64,000 bases of DNA from Thermoplasmatota archaeon (GTDB lineage Archaea; Thermoplasmatota; Penumbrarchaeia; Penumbrarchaeales; Penumbrarchaeaceae), in the NCBI GenBank assembly GCA_029762535.1, contig JARVGK010000003.1, forward strand, positions 32,001 to 96,000, written 5' to 3'. Below the pieces are notes generated by a model. That model was not told where the DNA came from, did no database searches, and saw only the letters and a program-made list of their open reading frames with translations. Position numbers and translations under genes: made by a program. This document shows, in pieces, positions 9,762 to 33,312 of this stretch (within the stretch, counting starts at the first letter, position 1; the number at the start of each line of letters is the position of its first letter).

Positions 9762-12455
9762 ATGAGATCGCTCTTATTCCTCATAACGCCCCTGCTCATC
9801 GTCCCGATCGTTCTTTTCGTTGATATATCCTGGGCGGATCCGGTCCAGGGGACCGAGTGGGACGCGCCGTTCCCCGACGATCTCAGGTTCTCCGATCCTG
9901 GCCCCATCGATTACGAAAGAATGATCGATGTTCTCTATCTGGATGACGGCACATATTTCTGGTTACACATCGTGACGGAGCAGGTCCCCGGTTACGACCT
10001 GAACAGTGTGATCCTCCTGTTAGAGATGTACTCCGAGGCCGACGAGCTCCTATCGAGCGATCCGATAACGCTTTTCGAGACATCTTTCGATCCATACGAT
10101 CGGATAGTGTATCCGGCGGAGTACGGAGACGACGGGATCGCATTCCTCCTCGAACTGAAACAGAACTATTATGGCAACAGCGGGGCCGATGAATTCTATA
10201 TGGTGGTCCTCGATAACGCGACATCCTCCGGGCCTCTGTCGGCGGAGTCGAAATACCTGGACATAGAGGACTTCGATCATTTCAGGTTCAGGTTCGAGGA
10301 GGAGTCCCTCCCGTATATGGCATACCTTGTCCTCTATGGAGAGGATATGGTCTTCGTCCAGCCCTATTCCTCGGAGGAGGGGTTCTTGGACCCTATCGAG
10401 TTCGAGGAAGGGGTTCGTCAGGCCTCGGACATACTCGACCACGGTGAGGGTATCATATTCATACATCAGGAGGCCCGTGGGACGATCACTTTAAGATCAT
10501 ACTATCCCAACGGGACCAAATTTGGGTCCGTGGATGTGCCGGCATATCCGGAGGGGATCGGTCTGGACAACACCTTCGACTCGTGGATGCACGAAGGGAA
10601 TATCCACCTTATGGTCTGGCGGGACGAATTGCGTGGGTCCTACAAGCACCTGGACCATCTGGTGATCTCCATCGACGGGGAGATAATAGATAAGGATCTG
10701 GACATCCTCCCATGGGAGAGCCCGTTCCTTTTGACCAACCATCTCTTCGGCCTCGAGGGGGACATCTTCCTGCTCGGGACCAACTCGTACTCGCTCTACA
10801 GGTTCGAGAAGGACATGACCCCCATCGTCAGATATCCTATCGGATCCCACCCGGACGATCCCGGCCTCTGGGAGATATTCCTGTTGGATCATTTCAAGGG
10901 AGAGGTCCATCTTCTCATCCGGGGCGAGGATCATTTCGGGATCTCCTCCTACAGGGAGGGCGAATTGCCCATGTTCGGCTCCTTCAGTATCGAAGAGGAT
11001 ACGGTCATGGACAACGAGACCTATCCCCAGGATTGCAGACTGATCGTTGGGAACGGCAGCACCCTGGTCCTCGAGGGGATCGATCTGATGATCGAGTACT
11101 ACGACTTCCCTCTGATCGTAACGGATGGCGGATCACTGGAGATGAAAGGATGCACGAACCGGACGGGCGAGAATTGGAACGTCGATAACGATGGCCGACT
11201 GACCATGGTCGATTGCACCATGAGGATCGATATCACCGGCACGGGTTCGATATTACTTGAAGGGAACGGGAACGTCTTCCCCACCCGATACTATCTGGAC
11301 TGGGAATGTTCCTCGCTGACGTTGACCGGAATTGTCGCCTCCGGATCGGATATTCCCACCCATCAGATCTTCTACAGTATCCAGAGGAACGACTATACCG
11401 TCCCCATGTTGAACATCATCGATTGCGAACTCAGGGATCTCGCATCGAACACGCGCAAAGGATTGGAAATGAGGGCCGACTCGATCCTCGTCAGGGACTG
11501 CACCTTCGAGAACGTCAGCTGCTTCTTCAACGACGGCGACCTGAAGATCGAAGGGTCTACGTTCCAGGATTGCGATCTCTCCGGAGTGGATCCCGCGGAT
11601 ACGGTCCATGTTATCGATTCGACCTTCAGGGATTGCAGGAACGTCTATTGGCTGTTCGGCACGATGCATTCCGAGATCGAAGGGTCGTCCTTCATGAACT
11701 GCTCCCGGATCATCGAGACCTCGTCCTATGCCGATAATCGGATAGAGGTCTCGAAGTGCCGGTTCGTCGAATGCGAGAACGTCACCGAATACGAGGGATC
11801 GGACCTCATAACGATCGAGGATTCCCTGTTCCTGAACTGCCGGAGGACGATCGGCATCGATGCCGATCTGGATGAACACATAGGGCTCAGGATAGCGAAC
11901 TGCACCTTCGACGGTAAACAACGCCAGGTCTATTTCAAGGGCGATCCGCTGGACGATGTCGACCCGTTCGACGATCCCGAGGAACCGTTCGGTTACAACA
12001 CCCCGAGGATGGTTGACCTGGCCTACAATACCTGGAACGCCTCCCATCCGGAGCAGGTGGCCTCCGTCGTTTCCTTCGGTATCAAGTTCCTTCCGTTCAA
12101 TGACCTCGAGGGGAACCTGATATCGACCGAAGATGACGACATGGACCGGATGGACGACGATTGGGAGGAAAAGAACGGCCTTGACCCGGAGCATTATTTC
12201 GACAGGTTCCTCGATCCCGACAACGACGGCTACGACAATCTCGAGGAGTTCAGGGCGGGCTCGGACCCCATGGATGGCGGGGATCATCCCTACGAGATGA
12301 CTCCCGAACTGAAGTTATGGATACTTATATGCGCGTGCAGCGTCCTGGTGGCCGCCGCCCTTTTCATCGCGTTCCCACTGCAGGCATTCGTCAGGGGGAT
12401 CCGGCCTCCCCCTAAAAACCATAAGGATGAGAAGATAAAGGAGGGGGCGCATTGA
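9762..12455 (+). CDS. Surface protein: right-handed beta-helix, DxDxDG Ca-binding module, C-terminal TM
   Basis: Signal peptide; repeated (I/V)xDCTFxN units; DDDWEEKNGLDP...DPDNDGYDNLEEF; TM plus basic tail. Confidence 0.7.
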   Translation: MRSLLFLITPLLIVPIVLFVDISWADPVQGTEWDAPFPDDLRFSDPGPIDYERMIDVLYLDDGTYFWLHIVTEQVPGYDLNSVILLLEMYSEADELLSSDPITLFETSFDPYDRIVYPAEYGDDGIAFLLELKQNYYGNSGADEFYMVVLDNATSSGPLSAESKYLDIEDFDHFRFRFEEESLPYMAYLVLYGEDMVFVQPYSSEEGFLDPIEFEEGVRQASDILDHGEGIIFIHQEARGTITLRSYYPNGTKFGSVDVPAYPEGIGLDNTFDSWMHEGNIHLMVWRDELRGSYKHLDHLVISIDGEIIDKDLDILPWESPFLLTNHLFGLEGDIFLLGTNSYSLYRFEKDMTPIVRYPIGSHPDDPGLWEIFLLDHFKGEVHLLIRGEDHFGISSYREGELPMFGSFSIEEDTVMDNETYPQDCRLIVGNGSTLVLEGIDLMIEYYDFPLIVTDGGSLEMKGCTNRTGENWNVDNDGRLTMVDCTMRIDITGTGSILLEGNGNVFPTRYYLDWECSSLTLTGIVASGSDIPTHQIFYSIQRNDYTVPMLNIIDCELRDLASNTRKGLEMRADSILVRDCTFENVSCFFNDGDLKIEGSTFQDCDLSGVDPADTVHVIDSTFRDCRNVYWLFGTMHSEIEGSSFMNCSRIIETSSYADNRIEVSKCRFVECENVTEYEGSDLITIEDSLFLNCRRTIGIDADLDEHIGLRIANCTFDGKQRQVYFKGDPLDDVDPFDDPEEPFGYNTPRMVDLAYNTWNASHPEQVASVVSFGIKFLPFNDLEGNLISTEDDDMDRMDDDWEEKNGLDPEHYFDRFLDPDNDGYDNLEEFRAGSDPMDGGDHPYEMTPELKLWILICACSVLVAAALFIAFPLQAFVRGIRPPPKNHKDEKIKEGAH

Positions 12456-19690: not shown

Positions 19691-21082
19691 TCATGACTTG
19701 TAGTAGGTCTTGATGTACTTATCATCTATTCTCTTGAGCTCGTCCTTGGGGATGATCCTCAAGAGCTTCCAGGCTATACCGAGCGTGTCTTCGATGGTTC
19801 GGTCCTCGTCGTTCCTCTGAGTGATAAAATGTTTCTCGAACTCCTCAGAGAAGCGCAGATATGCCCTATCCCTGTCGGTGAGAGCCTCCTCCCCGACCAC
19901 GGCGACGAGGTCCCTGAGGTTCACTCCCTCGGCGTAGGCGGCATAGAGCTGATTGGACACCTGGTCGTGATCGCCCCTGGTCCTGCCTTCTCCGATCCCC
20001 TGCTTCATCAGCCTGGAAAGGCATGGTAGTACATCGACGGGAGGGGATATGGACTTGCGGTGCAGGTCCCTGGATAGAACGATCTGTCCCTCAGTTATGT
20101 AACCCGTCAGGTCAGGTATCGGATGCGTTATGTCGTCATCTGGCATCGTCAATATGGGTATCTGGGTTATGGAACCCTTCCTGTTCTGTATCCTGCCCGC
20201 CCTTTCGTATATCTGGGACAGGTCGGTGTACATATATCCCGGGTAACCCCTTCTGCCCGGGACCTCCTCCCTCGCCGCCGCGATCTCCCTCAGAGCCTCG
20301 CAGTAGTTGGTCATGTCGGTGAGTATGACGAGTATATGCATGTCCTTGGAATATGCCAGGTATTCCGCCGTGGTGAGGGCCATCCTGGGGATGATGATCC
20401 TCTCGATCGCGGGATCGTCCGCTAGGTTAAGGAACAGGACGGACCTCTCCAGAGCCCCGCTCAGCTCGAAGGAACGTTTGAAGTAGTTCGCCTCCTCGGC
20501 AGTTATCCCCATTGCGCAGAATATAACGGCGAACTCGCCCGATCCTCCGGGGACCTTGGCCTGTCTAGCGATCTGTGCGGCGAGGTCATTGTGAGGAAGG
20601 CCCGATGCGGAAAAGATGGGGAGCTTCTGCCCTCTGACGAGCGTGTTCATTCCGTCTATGGTGGATATTCCGGTCTGGATGAACTCCCGAGGGTATTCCC
20701 TGGCAGTTGGATTGATGGGCTCCCCGTTGATGTCCTTTCGTAGCTCGGGAATGATCTCCGGGCCGTCATCGATGGGTCTGCCGATACCGTCGAAGACCCG
20801 GCCCAGCATGTCCTGGGACAGTGGGATCTTCATCGTCTCCCCGGTGAACCTCACCGAGGTCGTCTTGGTGTCTATACCCTTGGTTCCCTCGAAGACCTGT
20901 ATTATCGCCTTGTCGGTATGGGCCTCGAGGACCTGTCCGAGCCTCATCTTCCCATCCGGGGCCCTGACCTGTACCACCTCGCCGTAGGATGCGCCTTTTA
21001 CCCCTTCGACGACCATCAGCGGACCCGATACCTCCTGGACGGTCGAATACTCAACATCCTTGCCCTCGACCAGGGTTGACAT
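19691..21082 (-). CDS. atpB: A/V-type ATP synthase subunit B
   Basis: [44 protein letters not shown]. Confidence 0.97.
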
Positions 21083-22986: not shown

Positions 22987-25572
22987 TCACATCGAACACC
23001 AGGAGCATCTTCCCTTGCCATCGCAGACGTTGCAGGTACCGCTGCCTTTGCAGGATGTGCATGTGTCCCCGAAGTATTTTCCAGTCCCGTTGCAGGTGGA
23101 GCATTTTCCGGTGCCCTTGCACCATGAGCACTCGCCCGTCCCGGAGCAGGATATGCAGTTGGGATCGCCGGCCTTCTTGACCGGTGCCTCCTCGACCTTG
23201 TCCTCGGAGGGTCTTTCCTTTTCCTTGGTATCTTTCTTCTTTTCCTCTTCTGGGGTCTGCTTGAGCTTCATAAGGATCTTCTTCTTGTAGAAGCTGGCTT
23301 CCTTGTTCTTCTGGTCGATATTGAGGACCGCATCGAAGAAACCAAGGGATTCCATCATTCTGCCGGCCTTGTATGAGGACCTGGCCTTTTCTAACAGTTC
23401 GTCGATCTCTCTCTTGGTAGTTCCATCTTTATTCTCGGCGGGCATTTTTTTCCCGGATATTTCTGATTCATATTCATCCACCATATAGGGATCGTTGAAG
23501 GAGTTCGCTTTGGCCTTCAGGTCATCGTCCTTCTTCTTGTAGGCGTCCCTTAGAAGGCCAGCCTTGAGCTTTATGAGCCTTTTAACGAGTTCCTTGAATA
23601 TCTCGTACTCCGAATTCAGATAATCAGTGTCCGTCGTGAGGTAGCTCCTGATCTTAGAGGTGTCAATCCCCTTGGAGTCTATCTCATCAAGCTTTCTGCA
23701 GATGACGCCGCGCCTCTGCTCCTCCTTGGCGTTCTTCTCCTTTAGGTTCTGGAACACCTCCATGACCTCTGAAGTCATGTCGGGTTTGTCCAGATTCTCG
23801 GCGATGAACGTCTCATCCGTCTTGAACCAACCCCTGATCTCGGTCTGGAACTCCTTCTTGAAGGTCTCGAGCGTTGCGATCGAGCGGGTGTATTTAAGCA
23901 TGATATCCTGAAGGTTCTCCACGGTCTTGGCCTGTCTCATCTGAGATAGAATGCCTTCGATCTCGTACCCCTGTCCCCTCCAAACCTTGAGCAGATCGTT
24001 GAGCTCCTTTCTCTTCTCCCTCATCCCCTCATATTCCTGGATCTGTCCTTCGATCTCGGAATACTCCCTGATCACGGATTCGTACAGTTCGGGGTTCTTG
24101 AGCTTCAATAATACCTTGTGGACGCTGTCGGATATCTCCTTTACGTTCTGGGACTTGAGTTTCGCTTCGATATCCAGGAGTTGCTTGATCCTGTCATCGT
24201 ATAGTTCGATCAGCTTTTCCGTAGAGTCCAGGTCCTTTTTATCGAACATGTCCTCCAATTGATTGATCGTGAATCCCATACCCTTCCACTGCTTTATTGT
24301 GGATTCGATGTTCTGCGTCCTGATCCTGTGGGCCTTGATCCTCTCCTTAAGCTCCTTTATCTGATGGTCTATGACCTCCATGTTGGTGGGATCGTTCATG
24401 GACTCGAATATCTGTGCGAGATCGTCCTCGAAATCGGTGGCATCCATAGAGAACAGCCTCTCCTTCAGGGACTTGAGCTTCGCGAGGTTCCTGACGAAAA
24501 TGTCATATTCCTCCTCAAGCAGGTTCATATCCTCGTTCAGGAGTTGCTCCACCATCTCCACCTTGTATCCTTCGACCCTGTAACGCCTGAGGCTCTCCTT
24601 AATCTCGGCACGCCTCTTGGATTCCTCCACTAGGCGCTTCTCCCTATCTTTTATGGCGCCGATCTCCTTTTCGAGAGAGAGCATCCTCTCGACGATGGTA
24701 TCCAGCATCCAGGGGTCATCGATCATCGACTCCAGGTCCCTTAATTGGGAGGAGATCGAGGAGCTCACCGGAGAGGATTTGATATCGAGGAATTTCTGCT
24801 TTTCCTTCAAAAGATAATCAACGTTACCCTCGTAGATGTTGAACTGCTTCTCCAGATAGTCGAGGTCATCGTCGTTGTCTATCATCTCCTCGAGCGAATG
24901 GGTAATGAGACCTTTCCTCTTGTATCTCTGCAGCCTGTTCCTTAGGGCTCTGTATCGGCCATCAACGGATTTGAGTATGCCTCTGAGCTGGCCGATCCTT
25001 CTATCGAGGTCATCAAGCTTACCCAACTTGAAGACCTCCTTCTCGATGTTATCGATCTTTTTCCTGTATCCGCCTCCCACCTCGGAATGGTTGGCTCTAA
25101 GGTCCGCTATCGTGTCCCTTATTCTCTCTGCCTTCTCTATCTGCTCTCCCAGGGATACGAATCGCCTTTCCACCTCCTCGAAGGGATGGGAGAACAGGCC
25201 ATCATCCTTTTCCAGTTTGTATCCTTTCTCCCTCCATTCGGACACAATGGCCTTCCACTCCGATATCTTCTGGTCCATCTGATTCGCGTCCCTTATGAGC
25301 GCGAAGACACCCTTGCCCTTTTTCGAGGCGTTGCCCTTATCCTTGTTCAGTGTATCTTTCAGTCGGTTCAGATCGCCTATGAACTCCTGGATGAGGCTGT
25401 AGGCCTTCTGATGTTCACCGGTCTTGAAGAACTCCCTTGCCGAGTCGAGCTTTCCTCTTACGGGAGAGATGTCCAGGCCCTGACGCTCAAGCTGGGTCGC
25501 AAAGGCATCCCCTTTCTGGATGACCTGCTCCAGCTTCTGTATCTTGTCCTGTGCGGACGGGGATTCAATCAA
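22987..25572 (-). CDS. Large helical-repeat protein with TPR-like helix pair and C-terminal DnaJ-type CxxCxGxG Zn finger
   Basis: Repeated (W/Y)xxxG(Y/F) units; six CxxC motifs at the C-terminus. Confidence 0.65.
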   Translation of the reverse strand: MIESPSAQDKIQKLEQVIQKGDAFATQLERQGLDISPVRGKLDSAREFFKTGEHQKAYSLIQEFIGDLNRLKDTLNKDKGNASKKGKGVFALIRDANQMDQKISEWKAIVSEWREKGYKLEKDDGLFSHPFEEVERRFVSLGEQIEKAERIRDTIADLRANHSEVGGGYRKKIDNIEKEVFKLGKLDDLDRRIGQLRGILKSVDGRYRALRNRLQRYKRKGLITHSLEEMIDNDDDLDYLEKQFNIYEGNVDYLLKEKQKFLDIKSSPVSSSISSQLRDLESMIDDPWMLDTIVERMLSLEKEIGAIKDREKRLVEESKRRAEIKESLRRYRVEGYKVEMVEQLLNEDMNLLEEEYDIFVRNLAKLKSLKERLFSMDATDFEDDLAQIFESMNDPTNMEVIDHQIKELKERIKAHRIRTQNIESTIKQWKGMGFTINQLEDMFDKKDLDSTEKLIELYDDRIKQLLDIEAKLKSQNVKEISDSVHKVLLKLKNPELYESVIREYSEIEGQIQEYEGMREKRKELNDLLKVWRGQGYEIEGILSQMRQAKTVENLQDIMLKYTRSIATLETFKKEFQTEIRGWFKTDETFIAENLDKPDMTSEVMEVFQNLKEKNAKEEQRRGVICRKLDEIDSKGIDTSKIRSYLTTDTDYLNSEYEIFKELVKRLIKLKAGLLRDAYKKKDDDLKAKANSFNDPYMVDEYESEISGKKMPAENKDGTTKREIDELLEKARSSYKAGRMMESLGFFDAVLNIDQKNKEASFYKKKILMKLKQTPEEEKKKDTKEKERPSEDKVEEAPVKKAGDPNCISCSGTGECSWCKGTGKCSTCNGTGKYFGDTCTSCKGSGTCNVCDGKGRCSWCSM

Positions 25573-25813: not shown

Positions 25814-26137
25814 GTGTCTCAAATGAAAGCTTCTTCGATGGACAGGCTGCTCCAGGCCGAGCGCTTGGCCCAGCAGCGGGTCGATGGTGCCCGGACCGAG
25901 GCCTCGCAAATGGTCAATAGGGCCCGGGATGATATGAAGGAACATTCGGAGAAGTTGATCAAAGACGAAATTAGGTCGAAAAAAGCCGAGCTGGCAGCGG
26001 TCAAGGAGCGGGCCGAGAAAGAGTCCGAAAGACTGAGAAAGGAAGGAGCGATCTACGCCGAGGAGATAACGAAAAAGGGACGTAAGCTGGTCCCGGATGC
26101 GGTTGAAGCGGTAGTCGGCGAGTACCTTGATGGATGA
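25814..26137 (+). CDS. atpH: A-type ATP synthase subunit H (peripheral stalk)
   Basis: Charged coiled coil (LLQAERLAQQRVDGARTEA); first gene of the operon. Confidence 0.75.
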   Translation: MSQMKASSMDRLLQAERLAQQRVDGARTEASQMVNRARDDMKEHSEKLIKDEIRSKKAELAAVKERAEKESERLRKEGAIYAEEITKKGRKLVPDAVEAVVGEYLDG

Positions 26138-26152
26138 GGGAGATGAGTTGTA

Positions 26153-28195
26153 TTGTACCCGGAAAGGATGGACAGGGTGGACTTGTACCTTATGAAAAAG
26201 GATGTGGAAGGGACCCTTAAAGCCCTCCATGCGTCCATGATGATCGAGGCGGTCTCCTCGAAGGTCGCCCCCAAGGCAGGTGGGAACGATCGGGCATTGT
26301 CCGAAATGAAGGCAAGGGCGGATCGTCTCATGGACTTCATCGACGAACATCGCACTAGGCCAAAGGGCATGATATCCTCCATGCTGCCCGAGGAAGGAAT
26401 GATCCTCGATATCCCGGAGAACGAGGTACGGGGATATGTTTCAAAGCGCCTCAAGATCATCGAATCATCGATCCTGCCCGTGAAGCTCGATCTGGAAAGT
26501 ATCGTGAACGATCTCGAATTCCTTTCGGATTCGATTTCCAGACTGACCCAGATATCAGGGTTGGACGTGGATATGGGATATCTGTCCGAATTCAGTTTCC
26601 TGAAGTTCCGTGTGGGTTACACTCGCAGATTCACGGAGCTCAGGGAGACAGTGGAGGCCGCCGGAGGGTCCGTTGAAGGCTCCTTGCTCGATCGCAGGGA
26701 GGGCCTGCACGCCGTGAGCGTGATCTACACGAAAAGCACCGCTCAGGTTGTGGAGGAAGCTCTCAGGGGGAGGCTCTTCACCGACATAGTCATCGATAGG
26801 GTGAGGCTCTCGAGGGTTTTGGAGAGGGGTGGCCTCTCGTCCAAAGTACTGAAAATGAGGGTTCGGGACCTGCTCCCCGAGCTCGAGAGAGCGCGTGTGG
26901 GCCTTCTGGCCAAGAGGGATTCCACAAGGGCGATGGCCTCAGCGCTCTCTTCAGATCACTATCAGGAGATGCTCTCCCTGGAGGAGGCGCTCGATGTGGA
27001 GCGTGATATGGAACTGGGCAGGGGTTACTTCGGTCATAGTAGGTATACCGCATCGATCTCAGGATGGGTGCCAAGAAGGAGGCGCAATGAGCTCATATCC
27101 ATATTCAAGGCGACCTTGGGAAGGGAATTCCAAGCCGATTTCAGGGAACCAACGGAGGATGAGATCGGTTCCGAAACGGTCCCTGTCAAGTTGCGCAACG
27201 GATGGTTGGGCGAATTGTTCGAGCCCTTGACAACGACCTTCGCCATGCCGCGCTACAACGAGATCGATCCGAGCCTCTTCATTTCAATACCATTCATACT
27301 ATTCTTTGGAATGATGATGGGCGATGCGGGATACGGCGCCCTAATATTGCTTCCTTCGATTTACCTGTATATCAAGGGAAAGCGGAGCCCCATGCTCAAG
27401 ACCACGTCCATCCTCGGGATGTTAATGGGGGTGTCGTCCATTCTTGCCGGCATATGGATGGGCGCTTTCTTCGGAGATCTCGTACCGAGGCTTTTCTACG
27501 GCGACCCCCTGAAGCCCATATACTCATTGACGATAGCCGGTTATACCCTCCCCTATGACAGCTTGAGAGACCCAATGCACCTGTTCGGAATATCGATGGC
27601 CCTCGGTCTTCTCCATATAAACCTGGGTTTCCTACTGCTCGGATACGACAGGTTGAGAAAAAAAGACATTTGGGGTTTCATCAAAGGATCGGTATCTTGG
27701 GTATTCATCCAGTCAGGTGCCGGTATCCTTCTTGGCGGAACCATGCTTCAGGCTTTCGAGGCGGGGACCGGCGTTCTCGCCGCTGGAGGCGCATTGTTCC
27801 TGATCGGGGCAGTCCTTCTGGCATTCGAAGCCAAGGTGATGACCTTTTTCTCGATCGAAGGGATAATCGGCGATGTCGTCTCATACGCCAGGATACTGGC
27901 CCTGGGCCTATCGACGTTCGGTTTGGCCATGGCGTTCAACATAATCGGAGAGATGCTAGGTGGGATGACCCCCTTGCTCTTTCCAGTGGCGGCACTGCTG
28001 CTCGCCGTGCTGCACGTGGTTAACCTGCCTATACAGATGCTCGGGGGTTTCGTGCACTCGCTCAGACTGCAGTATGTCGAATTCTTCGGCAAGTTCTACG
28101 AGGGAGGGGGCCGCAAGTTCGAGCCCTTCGGCAGGGAGAGGCAGCATACAAGATATGTCCGCATCCAAAACGCGGAGGGGGTCGGTGAACGATGA
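26153..28195 (+). CDS. atpI: A-type ATP synthase subunit I (a)
   Basis: PRYNEIDP, FFGMMMGDAGYG, SYARILALGL, HSLRLQYVEFFGKFY. Confidence 0.95.
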   Translation: MYPERMDRVDLYLMKKDVEGTLKALHASMMIEAVSSKVAPKAGGNDRALSEMKARADRLMDFIDEHRTRPKGMISSMLPEEGMILDIPENEVRGYVSKRLKIIESSILPVKLDLESIVNDLEFLSDSISRLTQISGLDVDMGYLSEFSFLKFRVGYTRRFTELRETVEAAGGSVEGSLLDRREGLHAVSVIYTKSTAQVVEEALRGRLFTDIVIDRVRLSRVLERGGLSSKVLKMRVRDLLPELERARVGLLAKRDSTRAMASALSSDHYQEMLSLEEALDVERDMELGRGYFGHSRYTASISGWVPRRRRNELISIFKATLGREFQADFREPTEDEIGSETVPVKLRNGWLGELFEPLTTTFAMPRYNEIDPSLFISIPFILFFGMMMGDAGYGALILLPSIYLYIKGKRSPMLKTTSILGMLMGVSSILAGIWMGAFFGDLVPRLFYGDPLKPIYSLTIAGYTLPYDSLRDPMHLFGISMALGLLHINLGFLLLGYDRLRKKDIWGFIKGSVSWVFIQSGAGILLGGTMLQAFEAGTGVLAAGGALFLIGAVLLAFEAKVMTFFSIEGIIGDVVSYARILALGLSTFGLAMAFNIIGEMLGGMTPLLFPVAALLLAVLHVVNLPIQMLGGFVHSLRLQYVEFFGKFYEGGGRKFEPFGRERQHTRYVRIQNAEGVGER

Positions 28196-28235: not shown

Positions 28236-28982
28236 ATGGAGGATAAAGAAATGAGATGGATGTCCGTATTGATCGTGTCGATCATCGTAGCAGGAGCCCT
28301 GCTCATGGCAGGTATCGCGAACGCCGAGAGGGTCCCCGTACTCGACGAGGATAATGACGGGATGGATGACAACTGGGAGTTAGCGAATGGCCTGGACCCA
28401 ACCGTTGACGATTCCCTTGAGGACAAGGACGGAGACGGTGTCACCAACATCAAAGAGTACCTGGACTATTCGGATCCCGACGATCCAGAGGACTCCCCTA
28501 CGGTCATTTCCAACAGGAGGCTGGTCTTCATAGGCGTTGCCGTTGCGGCGGGAGTATCGGCCATCATGTCCTCGTTGGGGATAGGGATAGCAGGGGCTGC
28601 GGCCGCTGGAGTGGTCGGGGAGCGCCCCGACAAGTTCGGAAAGCTGATAATATATCAGGCGATGCCGATGACCCAGGGCATATATGGCCTTCTCATAGCC
28701 ATACTCGTACTGAACTTCACGGGACTCACCGATCTGAATATCGAGGTCCTGAAGAACCCGTTCATCGGGTGGGCGGCTCTGGGAATCGGCATTGTCATCG
28801 CCCTTTCATCATTTTCAGCGATACCGCAGGGGATGACATCCGCATCGGCCGCGGCCGCGTTCGGCAGGAACAACGCGATATTCGGCAAGGGTATGATATT
28901 CATAGTGATGTCGGAGACCCTGGCCATCTTCGGACTGCTCGTCGCCCTCTTCCTCATTCTGGCATCGGGAATGCTGGGCTGA
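28236..28982 (+). CDS. atpK: A-type ATP synthase subunit K (c), 4-TM Na+ type, with N-terminal signal peptide and DxDxDG module
   Basis: PMTQGIYG, SAIPQG and MSETLAIFG motifs; position in the operon. Confidence 0.92.
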   Translation: MEDKEMRWMSVLIVSIIVAGALLMAGIANAERVPVLDEDNDGMDDNWELANGLDPTVDDSLEDKDGDGVTNIKEYLDYSDPDDPEDSPTVISNRRLVFIGVAVAAGVSAIMSSLGIGIAGAAAAGVVGERPDKFGKLIIYQAMPMTQGIYGLLIAILVLNFTGLTDLNIEVLKNPFIGWAALGIGIVIALSSFSAIPQGMTSASAAAAFGRNNAIFGKGMIFIVMSETLAIFGLLVALFLILASGMLG

Positions 28983-29005: not shown

Positions 29006-29617
29006 ATGGGCGTAGAGGATGTCGTTCGGAGGATCGAGGCCGAGGCGGAGGAGGAGCAAAAGGCCATCATCGACGAAGCTATGGCCAGATCAGTCGGGAT
29101 AAAGGAAGAGGAGCTGTCCAGGATCGAGAACGAGCTCAAAGAGATAAGGAGATCCTTCGAGAGGGAGAAGGCCAGCCTGGTCAATGTCTATCTGAGCGAG
29201 GGTAGAAGAAAGGCCAGGCAGGCCGTGCTCGCCGCGAAGGAGAACGTGATATGGGAGGCGGTCTCAGGCATCAGAAAAAGGTTCAGCGACCTTGATGGCT
29301 CCGAACTTGAGGCCCTCCTTCGCAAGTTCTCCGAAAGGTCAAGAAAGGGACTTGGACCGGGCATTTCCATCTATGCTGTCAGGAGGAAGGACTCGGAGAT
29401 GCTGGAGAAATGCGGGGCGGAGGTGGCAGGGATCATAGAGGGCGACGACCCGCTTCCCGATGGAATATCCCGCTTGAGATCGCGATCCCTCATGGGGGGT
29501 TTCATAGCGATCTCCAAGGATGGTAGGAGAGCCCTTGACATGACCTTCGGTGGAACGCTAGAACGGGATAAGGAGAGAGTGCGGTCAAAAATATCGGAGA
29601 TTCTCTTCAGGGAATGA
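29006..29617 (+). CDS. atpE: A-type ATP synthase subunit E
   Basis: MGVEDVVRRIEAEA; MGGFIAISKDG...DMTF; ATG 29006 follows a GTGAGG RBS. Confidence 0.88.
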   Translation: MGVEDVVRRIEAEAEEEQKAIIDEAMARSVGIKEEELSRIENELKEIRRSFEREKASLVNVYLSEGRRKARQAVLAAKENVIWEAVSGIRKRFSDLDGSELEALLRKFSERSRKGLGPGISIYAVRRKDSEMLEKCGAEVAGIIEGDDPLPDGISRLRSRSLMGGFIAISKDGRRALDMTFGGTLERDKERVRSKISEILFRE

Positions 29618-29626
29618 GGATGTGAC

Positions 29627-30727
29627 ATGTCGCCTATTGGATTGTCCGGTCTGGTATATCCAGCCATAGCTGCTGGGGGGGCTTTGGCGGTCTCCGGAGC
29701 CGCTTTCGGGGTCAAGTACATGATAAGGCTCGGTCAGTTCTCCTACCAGAACGCCCGTTTATCGACCATTGGAAATCCTTATATCACCAGGGAGCAGTTG
29801 ATGCAATTGGTGGAGTTCGGAGATGCCGACGCTCTGTCTCGATCCCTTCAAGGGTCGTTCTCATTTAACTCCCCACCTCGTTCTTTCAGAGATGCTGATC
29901 ACCGCTTGATGGATTCATTCGCGAAGGTGATCGATGAACTCGTTAAGGATTCGCCGTCCCCGACCCATCCGAGTATAGCCCTACTTCTACTTCGATACGA
30001 GTCCATGGAGCTCAAACGCCTTCTCAGGTCCGTGGGCAGTAGCGATGGACCAATTCATCCCATCGGTTCTTTAAGGCCGGATCTTGAGATGCAGGTCCTT
30101 CGATCAGGCGGTTTGTCCCAGGCCGTAGAATGCTTGGAGCATCACCCTCTAGGCAAGGATATATCATCATTGACAAGGTCGGGAGACGTCGACCTGAGCT
30201 CATTGGACATGGCCCTTGACAGGGCGGTCATAGGGTACATGAGACGCGTTGAAGGTGTGCCAAAAATTGCAAAGAAGGGCACAATCGATCTAGGAGACAC
30301 TCTTGCTGACGCCTACAACATCAACATGATGCTGCGTTTGAAGGGGGGATCGACCGACAGGGAAAAGGCAATGACATTTGTTGTTCCCGGGGGGACGATA
30401 AGGCCGGACCGCATCGAGGGAATGGCCGAGGCGACCACGGTCCATGAGGCCGTTCAGGTCCTATCCGGGACGACCGCAGAGGAACATCTAAAGAGGTCCG
30501 AGGTCTCAGGGACCATCAATATGGACGTGGCCATGGACCGGATGGTCCTCGATGGCGCTGTGAGGATCGGACAGAGGTATTTCAGCGGAATAGGACCGAC
30601 GATAAGGCATGTGATCTCCCTGGAGATGGAGATGAGGAACCTCAGGACGTTGTTTCTCGCTTCGTTCTACGGCTGGGAAAGAGAGAGGACGATCAGCAAC
30701 CTTGTACTCCAGGAGGAGAGCGTATGA
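29627..30727 (+). CDS. atpC: A-type ATP synthase subunit C (d)
   Basis: FSYQNARL and EMEMRNLR motifs; position in the operon. Confidence 0.88.
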   Translation: MSPIGLSGLVYPAIAAGGALAVSGAAFGVKYMIRLGQFSYQNARLSTIGNPYITREQLMQLVEFGDADALSRSLQGSFSFNSPPRSFRDADHRLMDSFAKVIDELVKDSPSPTHPSIALLLLRYESMELKRLLRSVGSSDGPIHPIGSLRPDLEMQVLRSGGLSQAVECLEHHPLGKDISSLTRSGDVDLSSLDMALDRAVIGYMRRVEGVPKIAKKGTIDLGDTLADAYNINMMLRLKGGSTDREKAMTFVVPGGTIRPDRIEGMAEATTVHEAVQVLSGTTAEEHLKRSEVSGTINMDVAMDRMVLDGAVRIGQRYFSGIGPTIRHVISLEMEMRNLRTLFLASFYGWERERTISNLVLQEESV

Positions 30728-31056
30728 TGGAAGAGAACCTCCACGCCGCTCTCGATGATGACATGGCCCTGGGCTTCTCGTTGGCGGGGGTCAAGGACAT
30801 TTTCATTGTCACGGACGGGGAGGGCGATGGCGGATTGAAGGAATGGTTCCTGTCCAGGCTGAAGGATGAGGGTGGTCTGATCATCCTCTCCATGGAAGCG
30901 GCTGAAGGACTCAGGGACGAGCTTTTCACTAAAAGGGCCAGGGGGGCGCTTTTACCTGTTGTAGTGATTCTACCCGGAAGCGGAGAGGACAGTATCGCCA
31001 AGGACCTTGTCCGGAGGGCCATTGGAATGATGCCACACGGGGAGGGAACATCATGA
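30724..31056 (+). CDS. atpF: A-type ATP synthase subunit F
   Basis: DDDMALGFSLAGV; LVRRAIG. Confidence 0.9.
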   Translation: MMEENLHAALDDDMALGFSLAGVKDIFIVTDGEGDGGLKEWFLSRLKDEGGLIILSMEAAEGLRDELFTKRARGALLPVVVILPGSGEDSIAKDLVRRAIGMMPHGEGTS

Positions 31057-31093: not shown

Positions 31094-32878
31094 ATGAACG
31101 ATGATATGCATGGACAGGGATACATAGAGATGATCGCAGGACCGGTGGTCAAGGCCAGGGGCATGCGCGGTTCGAGGATGTACGATGTGGTGGCCGTTGG
31201 GAACGAGAAGCTCATTGGCGAGATCATCGGCCTGGAGGATGATATGGCCGTCATCCAGGTATACGAGGAGACAACAGGCATCGCCCCGGGCGAGCCGGTC
31301 TTGGCCACTGGAGTGCCCCTTTCGGTAGAGCTAGGACCTGGTATCATGTCGATGATCTACGACGGGATACAGCGTCCGCTGGAGAAGATCATGGATCGGA
31401 CAGGGGATTTCATAGCCCGGGGGGTTTCCGTAACCGCTCTGGACCATTCCCGCAAATGGCATTTCGTTCCGGTATGCTCCCAGGGGGATAGGCTGTTCGG
31501 GGGGGACGAGATGGGAAACGTCAAGGAGACCCCCACCGTCCTTCACCGGATACTTGTACCTTCGGGAGCGGACGGCACGGTGGATTGGGTCGCTCCAGAA
31601 GGGGATTACGATATAGATGAGGCCATTTGCCGTCTCAAAACATCTTCGGGCCAAAGGGAGCTGAACATGCATCAGAAATGGCCTGTCAGGATGGCGAGGC
31701 CCTACAGGAGCAAGCTCGATCCGGCTAGGCCGTTGATCACTGGTCAGAGAGTACTTGACACATTCTTTCCGCTCACCAAGGGCGGAACCGCGGCAATACC
31801 CGGAGGATTCGGCACTGGAAAGACGGTCACCCAGCATCAACTGGCGAAATGGTCCGATGCGGACATTATAGTTTACATCGGTTGCGGAGAAAGGGGAAAC
31901 GAGATGACGGATGTATTGAGGGAGTTCCCCCATCTCGAGGATCCTCGGACCAAGGAGCCTCTGATGTCGAGGACCGTGCTTATAGCTAACACCTCGAACA
32001 TGCCGGTGGCCGCAAGGGAGGCATCTGTATACACAGGTATCACGATAGCGGAATACTTCAGGGACATGGGATACGATGTAGCTCTTATGGCGGACTCGAC
32101 CTCTCGATGGGCCGAAGCTCTGAGGGAGATCTCGGGGCGGCTCGAGGAGATGCCGGGAGAAGAGGGTTATCCGGCATATCTAGCGAGTAGGCTGGCGAAT
32201 TTCTACGAGAGAGCGGGGCTCGTTCAGACCATCGGATCCAAGCCAGAGGAAGGCTCGATCTCGGTCATAGGAGCGGTATCTCCGCCTGGAGGTGATTTCT
32301 CCGAGCCCGTGACCCAGAACACGTTGAGAATAGTCAAGGTGTTCTGGGCTCTGGACGCGCTTCTGGCCGACAAGAGGCATTTCCCATCCATCAACTGGTT
32401 GAAATCCTATTCCCTATACCTTGAGAAGGTGGAGACATGGTGGAAGGAGAATGTCGACTCCAATTGGCTTTCTATGCGCAACGAATCGATGGCCCTTTTG
32501 CAGAAGGAGGCCGAGCTGCAGGAGATAATTCAGCTCGTCGGTCCCGACGCCCTGCCTCCCTCCCAGCAGGCGGTCCTGGAGGTTACCAGGATGCTGAGGG
32601 AGGATTTCCTACAGCAGAACGCATTCCATGATGTGGATTCTTACTGCTCAGAGACAAAGCAGGTCTCGATGCTGGGGGCCATCCTTCTTTTTCACAGGCT
32701 CTCCTCGCAGGCCGTTGATAGAGGGGCGACGATCGATATGGTCCGATCGTGCAGGTCCAGAGTTGCCATTTCCCGTCTTCCCAAGGTGGATGAGGCATCT
32801 TTCCCGAAGGAGATCGAAACCCTGAAAAAGGATATGATACAGGAGTTCAAGGCCATGGGGGCTCATTCCCGGCAATGA
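31094..32878 (+). CDS. atpA: A-type ATP synthase subunit A
   Basis: GGFGTGKT P-loop, [17 protein letters not shown]; no intein. Confidence 0.97.
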
Positions 32879-32949: not shown

Positions 32950-33312
32950 TTGCCCAAGGTGATGATAGTCGATGACGAACCCACCATCCAGCAGCTTCTG
33001 AGGATAATCATGGAGGACATGGGATACGAGGTCGTTGCCCAGTCGATGAACGGGGAGGCGGCCCTCAAGGCATATGACGGGATGGACCCAAAGCCGGATG
33101 TCCTGATCATAGATCACCGAATGCCGGTCATGACAGGATTGGACCTGGCGAAACGCGTTCTCGAGAAGGAGCCTGGTCAGAAGATCCTATTCCTCACAGC
33201 AGATGAGACCATCAAGGAACGCGTGAAGGAGATCGGCGTGACCTCCTTCCTCGAGAAGCCAGCTGAAATAGATGTCATAAGGACATCGGTCAGATCCCTC
33301 ATAGGCGAGTGA
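32950..33312 (+). CDS. Stand-alone response regulator receiver (CheY-like)
   Basis: IVDDE, IIDHRMP, FLTA, EKP. Confidence 0.92.
   Translation: MPKVMIVDDEPTIQQLLRIIMEDMGYEVVAQSMNGEAALKAYDGMDPKPDVLIIDHRMPVMTGLDLAKRVLEKEPGQKILFLTADETIKERVKEIGVTSFLEKPAEIDVIRTSVRSLIGE

Follow-up and report, generated by a model that had tools for sequence, protein, structure and literature searches.

In the 64,000-nucleotide stretch of DNA analyzed here (the window), a single frame encodes a genuine A-type ATP synthase K subunit, the only one of the cell, in which a predicted signal peptide and a strongly acidic module with two Ca-type loops precede a four-helix proteolipid. We consider it probable, with real room for doubt, that this sole K is made as a Sec precursor and that its acidic Ca2+ module is kept outside the cell, where the modules would form a rotating structural collar on the ring. 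We hold the anatomy of the fused K with high confidence and the function of the module on K with low confidence; cleavage of the signal, retention of the module, Ca2+ binding, the geometry of the collar and its function are all what we infer from that anatomy. Residues of the K precursor are numbered throughout on the 248-amino-acid form.

The K gene and its proteolipid core

The open frame (248 amino acids, 28236-28982, +) was placed between atpI and atpE from the ORF list, its translation and Pfam (Table 1). A first-pass annotation, made from the letters of the DNA, had taken this frame from its first ATG. The frame stands; the second ATG, at 28251, is the likelier start because a GGAGGA sits seven nucleotides upstream of it. 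The K precursor therefore likely begins M-R-W-M-S, and the database copy of the precursor (100% identity) is 243 amino acids long.

Table 1. Coordinates of the features discussed, given as positions in the window except for atpD.
Feature	Position	Strand	Remarks
Two-loop module and C-terminal anchor of surface protein 9762-12455	12132-12380	+	Residues 791-838; anchor ~850-873
atpB	19691-21082	-	Outside the operon, on the opposite strand; Pfam ATP-synt_ab, E 7.8e-79
atpH-like	25814-26137	+	Pfam V-ATPase_G, weak
atpI	26153-28195	+	Pfam V_ATPase_I, E 3.2e-23
Shine-Dalgarno-like GGAGGA	28238-28243	+	7 nt before ATG 28251; read off the sequence
atpK	28251-28982	+	Likely 243-aa precursor; longest ORF begins at ATG 28236 (248 aa)
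Signal peptide (predicted)	28251-28325	+	Residues 6-30, ending A-N-A; predicted cleavage before E31
Acidic ectodomain (predicted exported)	28326-28520	+	Residues 31-95; module ~31-82 and short linker into helix 1
Ca-type loop 1	28344-28379	+	Residues 37-48, D-E-D-N-D-G-M-D-D-N-W-E; EF-loop pattern
Ca-type loop 2	28422-28457	+	Residues 63-74, D-K-D-G-D-G-V-T-N-I-K-E; EF-loop pattern
Proteolipid hairpin 1	28530-28706	+	Residues 99-157; PF00137; no carboxylate; T146 and Q147 in P-M-T-Q-G
Proteolipid hairpin 2	28779-28955	+	PF00137; includes Q198 and E227 (codon 28914-28916)
atpE	29006-29617	+	Pfam
atpC	29627-30727	+	Pfam
atpF	30724-31056	+	Pfam
atpA	31094-32878	+	Pfam
atpD	G000:C20:40237-40812	-	On another contig

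The ATPase genes of this genome are scattered. The atpB gene lies ∼5 kb upstream of the operon on the opposite strand, atpD is on a different contig, and a response-regulator gene (32950-33312) comes after atpA in place of atpB-atpD. Divergent from the operon runs an 861-amino-acid ORF (22987-25572, -) without a Pfam match; by eye it is rich in charged residues and possibly coiled-coil, and a C-x-x-C-x-G-x-G run at its end resembles a DnaJ-type zinc finger.

Two PF00137 (ATP-synt_C) hairpins were identified in the K frame with Pfam (E 8e-26). This K is the sole PF00137 gene of the genome (2.96 Mb, 93% complete), and no second, plain K gene was found in the sequence at that completeness. The best sequence match of K among solved structures is Enterococcus hirae NtpK (2BL2, E 7.6e-16), and the top Foldseek match of the K model is a chain of the same entry (2bl2_A, TM-score 0.86 on the target). 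AlphaFold2, run with a 70-row alignment, returned a four-helix bundle (mean pLDDT 91) with helix 1 starting at mature residue 58, some five residues beyond the module.

NtpK forms the K10 ring of the E. hirae Na+ V-type ATPase and, like this K, is a duplicated four-helix protein with one carboxylate per subunit. Five of its residues, T64, Q65, Q110, E139 and Y68, reportedly form the Na+ site (Murata and co-workers, 2005). All five are kept in this K, where they align with T146, Q147, Q198, E227 and Y150, respectively, and these positions are invariant both in 30 and in 70 homologues. Hairpin 1 has Q147 at the carboxylate position, so that one ion site is expected per four helices. By these comparisons K is an NtpK-like four-helix proteolipid with one predicted Na+-type ion site per subunit; the initial description of a normal c subunit with four transmembrane helices is right as to the helices, and what has to be added to it is Q147 and the single site. 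The two proteins differ at the N-terminus, which in NtpK lies outside the cell. There, about seven residues precede the aligned region, with neither signal peptide nor outer domain, whereas in this K 25 signal residues and the 65-residue acidic module come first.

The signal peptide and the acidic two-loop module

Residues 6-30 show the pattern of a cleaved Sec signal, that is, an n-h-c layout with small residues at positions -3 and -1; cleavage itself would take place after A-N-A. The signal-like N-terminus reported in the first-pass annotation was recovered here as a hydrophobic segment with an A-x-A site. In a set of 30 homologues, Ala occupies position -1 in 26 and Gly in three; at position -3, 29 have a small residue (A, V, S or G). 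The residues following the predicted cleavage site, [ED]-R-x-P, are conserved. Mean pairwise identity in the same 30 sequences rises from 27% in the signal segment to 55% in the module and 71% in the membrane core.

The hydrophobic segment is ∼19 residues long, can therefore span the membrane, and could stay there as a helix, which would count against a collar. K would then have an uncleaved fifth helix (helix 0), possibly packed within the lumen of the ring as the additional helix of V-ATPase c'' is, and the module would join it to helix 1 as a loop on the outside; V-type c'' chains are indeed among the sequence and fold matches of K. We regard this arrangement as unlikely. Ala at -1 in 26 of 30 homologues and a small residue at -3 in 29 of 30 argue against it, as does the conserved [ED]-R-x-P just after the cleavage site, and a segment only 27% conserved is what one expects of a signal peptide and not of a packed helix.

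The ectodomain (residues 31-95) contains 22 D/E and 5 K/R, for a net charge of -17. An outer part of ∼55 amino acids with a DxDxDG motif had been described at first; the motif is present, but the ectodomain measures 65 residues. Both 12-residue loops fit D-x-D-x-D-G-x-x-[DN]-x-x-E, which is the EF pattern with ligands at loop positions 1, 3, 5, 9 and 12 and Gly at position 6, and these positions are invariant or nearly so. Eleven residues of the module are invariant (D39, D41, D45, W47, E48, D63, D65, D67, G68, N71 and E74). Judged by this pattern, the module would bind Ca2+.

Loops of this form, D-x-D-x-D-G-x-x-[DN]-x-x-E, are shared by the AtpK module, TSP3 repeats (PF18884) and EF-hands, but the module departs from both known types. 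AlphaFold2 models, with pLDDT of 88-93 over the module part of K and 85.7 for the module alone, show each loop followed, but not preceded, by a short helix, so that no entering helix is predicted for the AtpK loops and a canonical EF-hand helix-loop-helix was rejected. Pfam TSP3_bac matches residues 37-56 (E 0.014), and at 15.7 bits the AtpK repeats fall under the cut-off of 25. A relative with a doubled module scores 24.7 bits against the same cut-off, and the stretch C5:9539-9709, part of which passes it, matches the AtpK module at E 8e-14. We know of no function for TSP3-type repeats on a membrane enzyme.

Comparisons with solved structures gave weaker matches. In PDB profile searches the module matched best, though weakly, to lanmodulin (E 0.0018) and calmodulin, in both cases at EF loops, and Foldseek found no match of the module in the PDB at E values up to 10. 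A wide search with VIA-align gave Z of 2.0-3.3 to Ca-site regions of the Bap B domain, Vip1 and iota toxin Ib, which is too weak to name the fold of the module. Like lanmodulin (PDB 6MI5), many of the relatives place Pro second in the loop (D-P-D-x-D-G). The lanmodulin match suggests binding of lanthanides but is too weak to carry such a claim. A dockerin reading of the module was also discarded, there being no dockerin family match even at E values up to 10. The predicted complex of two module copies with four Ca scored 0.01, which speaks neither for nor against self-association. An N-glycosylation sequon lies between the loops in 37 of 43 family modules and is absent from this K; an N-glycan on the module therefore cannot be essential.

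K subunits of relatives and modules on other proteins

The ortholog survey that had been suggested with the first-pass annotation was carried out, and the fusion was found in ∼47 database proteins of 233-255 amino acids, which are 55-87% identical to this K over roughly 90-100% of their length. Within the class, which is probably EX4484-6 (Ca. Penumbrarchaeia) and was sampled as species-level genomes, 30 of the 36 genomes from which K was recovered have the module on it. All 22 such genomes of the organism's own family have it, as do the two genomes of the sister family and members of three more families. The gene order I-K-E-C-F-A is the same in five relatives (L001-L005), and K is the only c-type gene across the family, save for one weak borderline match in one genome. 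In a closed genome of the class, a second, F-type-like single-hairpin c (a 78-amino-acid frame at G004:C1:2783515-2783694, -) occurs beside the module-bearing K. A fusion of signal peptide, module and c subunit, as first proposed, is thus seen here in a single frame and kept across the class. With invariant loop residues in dozens of independent assemblies, the sequence record indicates that the fusion is more than chance. In a sample of 401 genomes of the phylum, no K outside the class was found to carry the module. Module-bearing K fell in two groups in a quick tree built from the membrane core, which needs two to three changes; one gain followed by replacement, or two gains, are possible histories.

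Other exported pieces occupy the place of the module elsewhere. Class members without it have a signal peptide and a tail of 20-50 residues rich in N-x-S/T sites, and many other Thermoplasmatota K have a signal peptide and an acidic tail of 10-30 residues. In others, a signal peptide and a PKD domain precede four to twelve fused hairpins. The order (signal peptide, exported piece, hairpins) is the same as in module-bearing K, but the exported piece is unrelated (Ig-like PKD or low-complexity sequence) and the number per ring would differ. Signal peptides followed by short acidic or N-x-S/T-rich tails occur on K in many families (L088-L093, P0096-P0121). Export of the K N-terminus seems, from these sequences, widespread in the phylum Thermoplasmatota. 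Very long K proteins (720-1190 amino acids, with up to 12 Pfam hairpin matches) are present in Nanoarchaeota-labelled and other archaeal MAGs (P0123-P0134), and some of these have a weak PKD match at the N-terminus.

Because many Thermoplasmatota K have only the short acidic tail, export of the N-terminus seems the older trait. The same tails are consistent with a signal peptide and module that serve biogenesis only, either Sec-dependent N-out insertion or ring assembly, after which the module would be removed and the ring left bare. Presequences on c subunits are known from nuclear-encoded mitochondrial forms, and these would fit the initial remark that some c subunits have presequences, which also leans toward a biogenesis role. 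Nonetheless, we doubt that the module is discarded: no second cleavage motif is conserved, only about five residues lie between the module and the N-terminal extension of helix 1, and class-wide invariant Ca-type ligands would be hard to explain in a discarded piece, as would folded PKD domains at the same place in other lineages. The short linker and the invariant ligands suggest instead that the module would stay on the mature ring subunit, as the collar that we favor requires.

Other proteins of this genome carry the module as well. A module-only search gave dozens of matches in large ORFs, and TSP3_bac gave 109 matches in the genome. With the AtpK-module profile, full-length copies were found in 24 ORFs, and in 20 of these a predicted membrane segment starts 6-40 residues past the end of the last module; the module is thus also on about 19 other membrane proteins. 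Most of the membrane segments are the single C-terminal anchor of surface proteins of 900-2000 residues. The surface protein at 9762-12455, which had been said at the outset to have the same module before its anchor, is an 897-amino-acid beta-helix with the module 11 residues before the anchor. Regular expression, profile and BLASTP searches agree on this identification (BLASTP against the AtpK module, 43% identity, E 2e-07), and TSP3_bac matches its residues 818-838. At the other extreme, a 150-amino-acid protein (G000:C36:104894-105235, -) consists only of signal peptide, module, anchor and a lysine-rich basic tail. A 306-amino-acid protein (G000:C102 from ∼86713, +) consists of a signal peptide, the module, one membrane helix and a cytoplasmic part that by eye looks like a winged-helix DNA-binding domain; it could be a one-component sensor with the module as its outer domain. 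Because the module precedes a membrane segment in 20 of 24 ORFs, it is, as far as sequence layout can tell, a general element of the outer membrane surface, placed beside a helix, and the layout on K is the same.

That the module also occurs in many surface proteins and in a regulator tethered to the membrane hints at a membrane-surface role that is general and not specific to the rotor. On K, the module might accordingly tie the ring into a surface layer through Ca2+-bridged contacts to lipids, glycans or other module proteins, with no cap being formed. The 24 module ORFs with their membrane-proximal placement favor such a role, as do the 150-amino-acid protein of signal, module and anchor and the 306-amino-acid regulator with its apparently DNA-binding cytoplasmic part. 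Yet attachment to stationary partners would impede rotation, unless it is the rest of the enzyme that turns. A search for a cohesin-like partner found none (cohesin PF00963 has no match at E up to 0.1 in the 93%-complete genome), and unrelated domains occupy the same place on K elsewhere, which points to a role independent of binding specificity. We rate this reading as rather improbable. An extended form of it, in which the Ca2+-dependent module ties the ring into an envelope layer so that the ring is fixed and the rest of the enzyme turns, or in which outside Ca2+ gates rotation of the ring, strikes us as quite improbable.

That the fusion is an artefact, through a misplaced start, a frameshift or chimeric assembly, can be dismissed with near certainty. 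The K frame is open throughout, and from residue 44 to residue 110 it offers no in-frame ATG, GTG or TTG from which an intact K lacking the module could be made; the same architecture also recurs, with its operon context conserved, in dozens of independent assemblies and 30 species-level genomes.

The proposed collar and its meaning

In the collar reading, the signal peptide would drive export of the highly acidic N-terminus and be cut off after A-N-A. The module would then fold outside around Ca2+ and stay joined to helix 1 by the linker of about five residues. This topology fits an outside module because the N-terminus of NtpK-type subunits lies outside the cell. In the NtpK structure (2BL2), helices 1 and 3 are on the inside, with helix 1 in the inner ring wall. 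A very short linker on an inner-wall helix would therefore place the modules on the outer face, round the mouth of the lumen. If the ring has about ten subunits, as does the E. hirae K10 ring, it would bear a rotating collar of about ten modules above the inner helices and the lumen mouth, each with a net charge of -17 and stiffened by Ca2+. The modules need not meet the stator subunit I. This putative geometry rests on the helix arrangement of the NtpK structure.

The most likely role of the collar would be structural, namely to cap and shield the outer face and the wide lumen of the rotor. Since unrelated domains are found at the same position of K elsewhere, the role is probably not tied to the chemistry of this module. 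Cations would also gather near the ion entry site, as a by-product of the charge. In most relatives, although not in this K, the module would also present an N-glycan.

A comparable cap exists in eukaryotes. Ac45/ATP6AP1, ATP6AP2 and Voa1 sit within the ring and cap the lumenal face of the V-ATPase rotor, a face that is topologically equivalent to the outside of this archaeon. The glycoproteins Ac45/ATP6AP1, ATP6AP2/PRR and yeast Voa1 are counted, with the c-ring, among the components of the rotor, and ATP6AP1 is heavily glycosylated (bioRxiv 10.1101/2024.04.01.587493; PMC10352029). They are, however, single-pass proteins in their own right, with one copy per ring, and are unrelated to the K module in sequence, whereas in this archaeon each ring subunit is encoded with a small Ca-loop module as its outer piece. 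The likeness, so far as the comparison goes, is one of analogy and not of homology.

The EX4484-6 class has lately been named Ca. Penumbrarchaeia and enriched to 90% on protein (PMC12220078), so that tests at the protein level are feasible. The same paper lists the ATPase genes of Ca. Penumbrarchaeia and does not mention an exported module on K. Full-text literature searches, which included a 2026 survey of rotary ATPase evolution, returned no paper on signal peptides or outer domains of archaeal c/K subunits. The first-pass annotation knew of no c subunit bearing a folded outer domain; this agrees with the published literature searched and fails for the sequence databases, which hold many K with exported tails or PKD domains. 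K with the collar module would thus be one form of a wider, undescribed design in Thermoplasmatota.

Textbooks present the rotor rings of rotary ATPases as bare rings embedded in lipid. If the collar is real, a folded, charged module on every ring subunit throughout a class would be a new structural element in a very well-studied machine; in sister lineages, this position on K is taken by unrelated domains. Prokaryotes would thereby have their own equivalent of the cap that Ac45/PRR forms on eukaryotic V-ATPases. It raises the questions of how the wide lumen of the ring is sealed in archaeal membranes, whether the outer rotor face needs to be shielded in protein-degrading cells, and whether Ca2+ outside the cell influences rotation. 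The source of this rotor with a putative outside collar is a sediment archaeon, and the design is found in most of its class.
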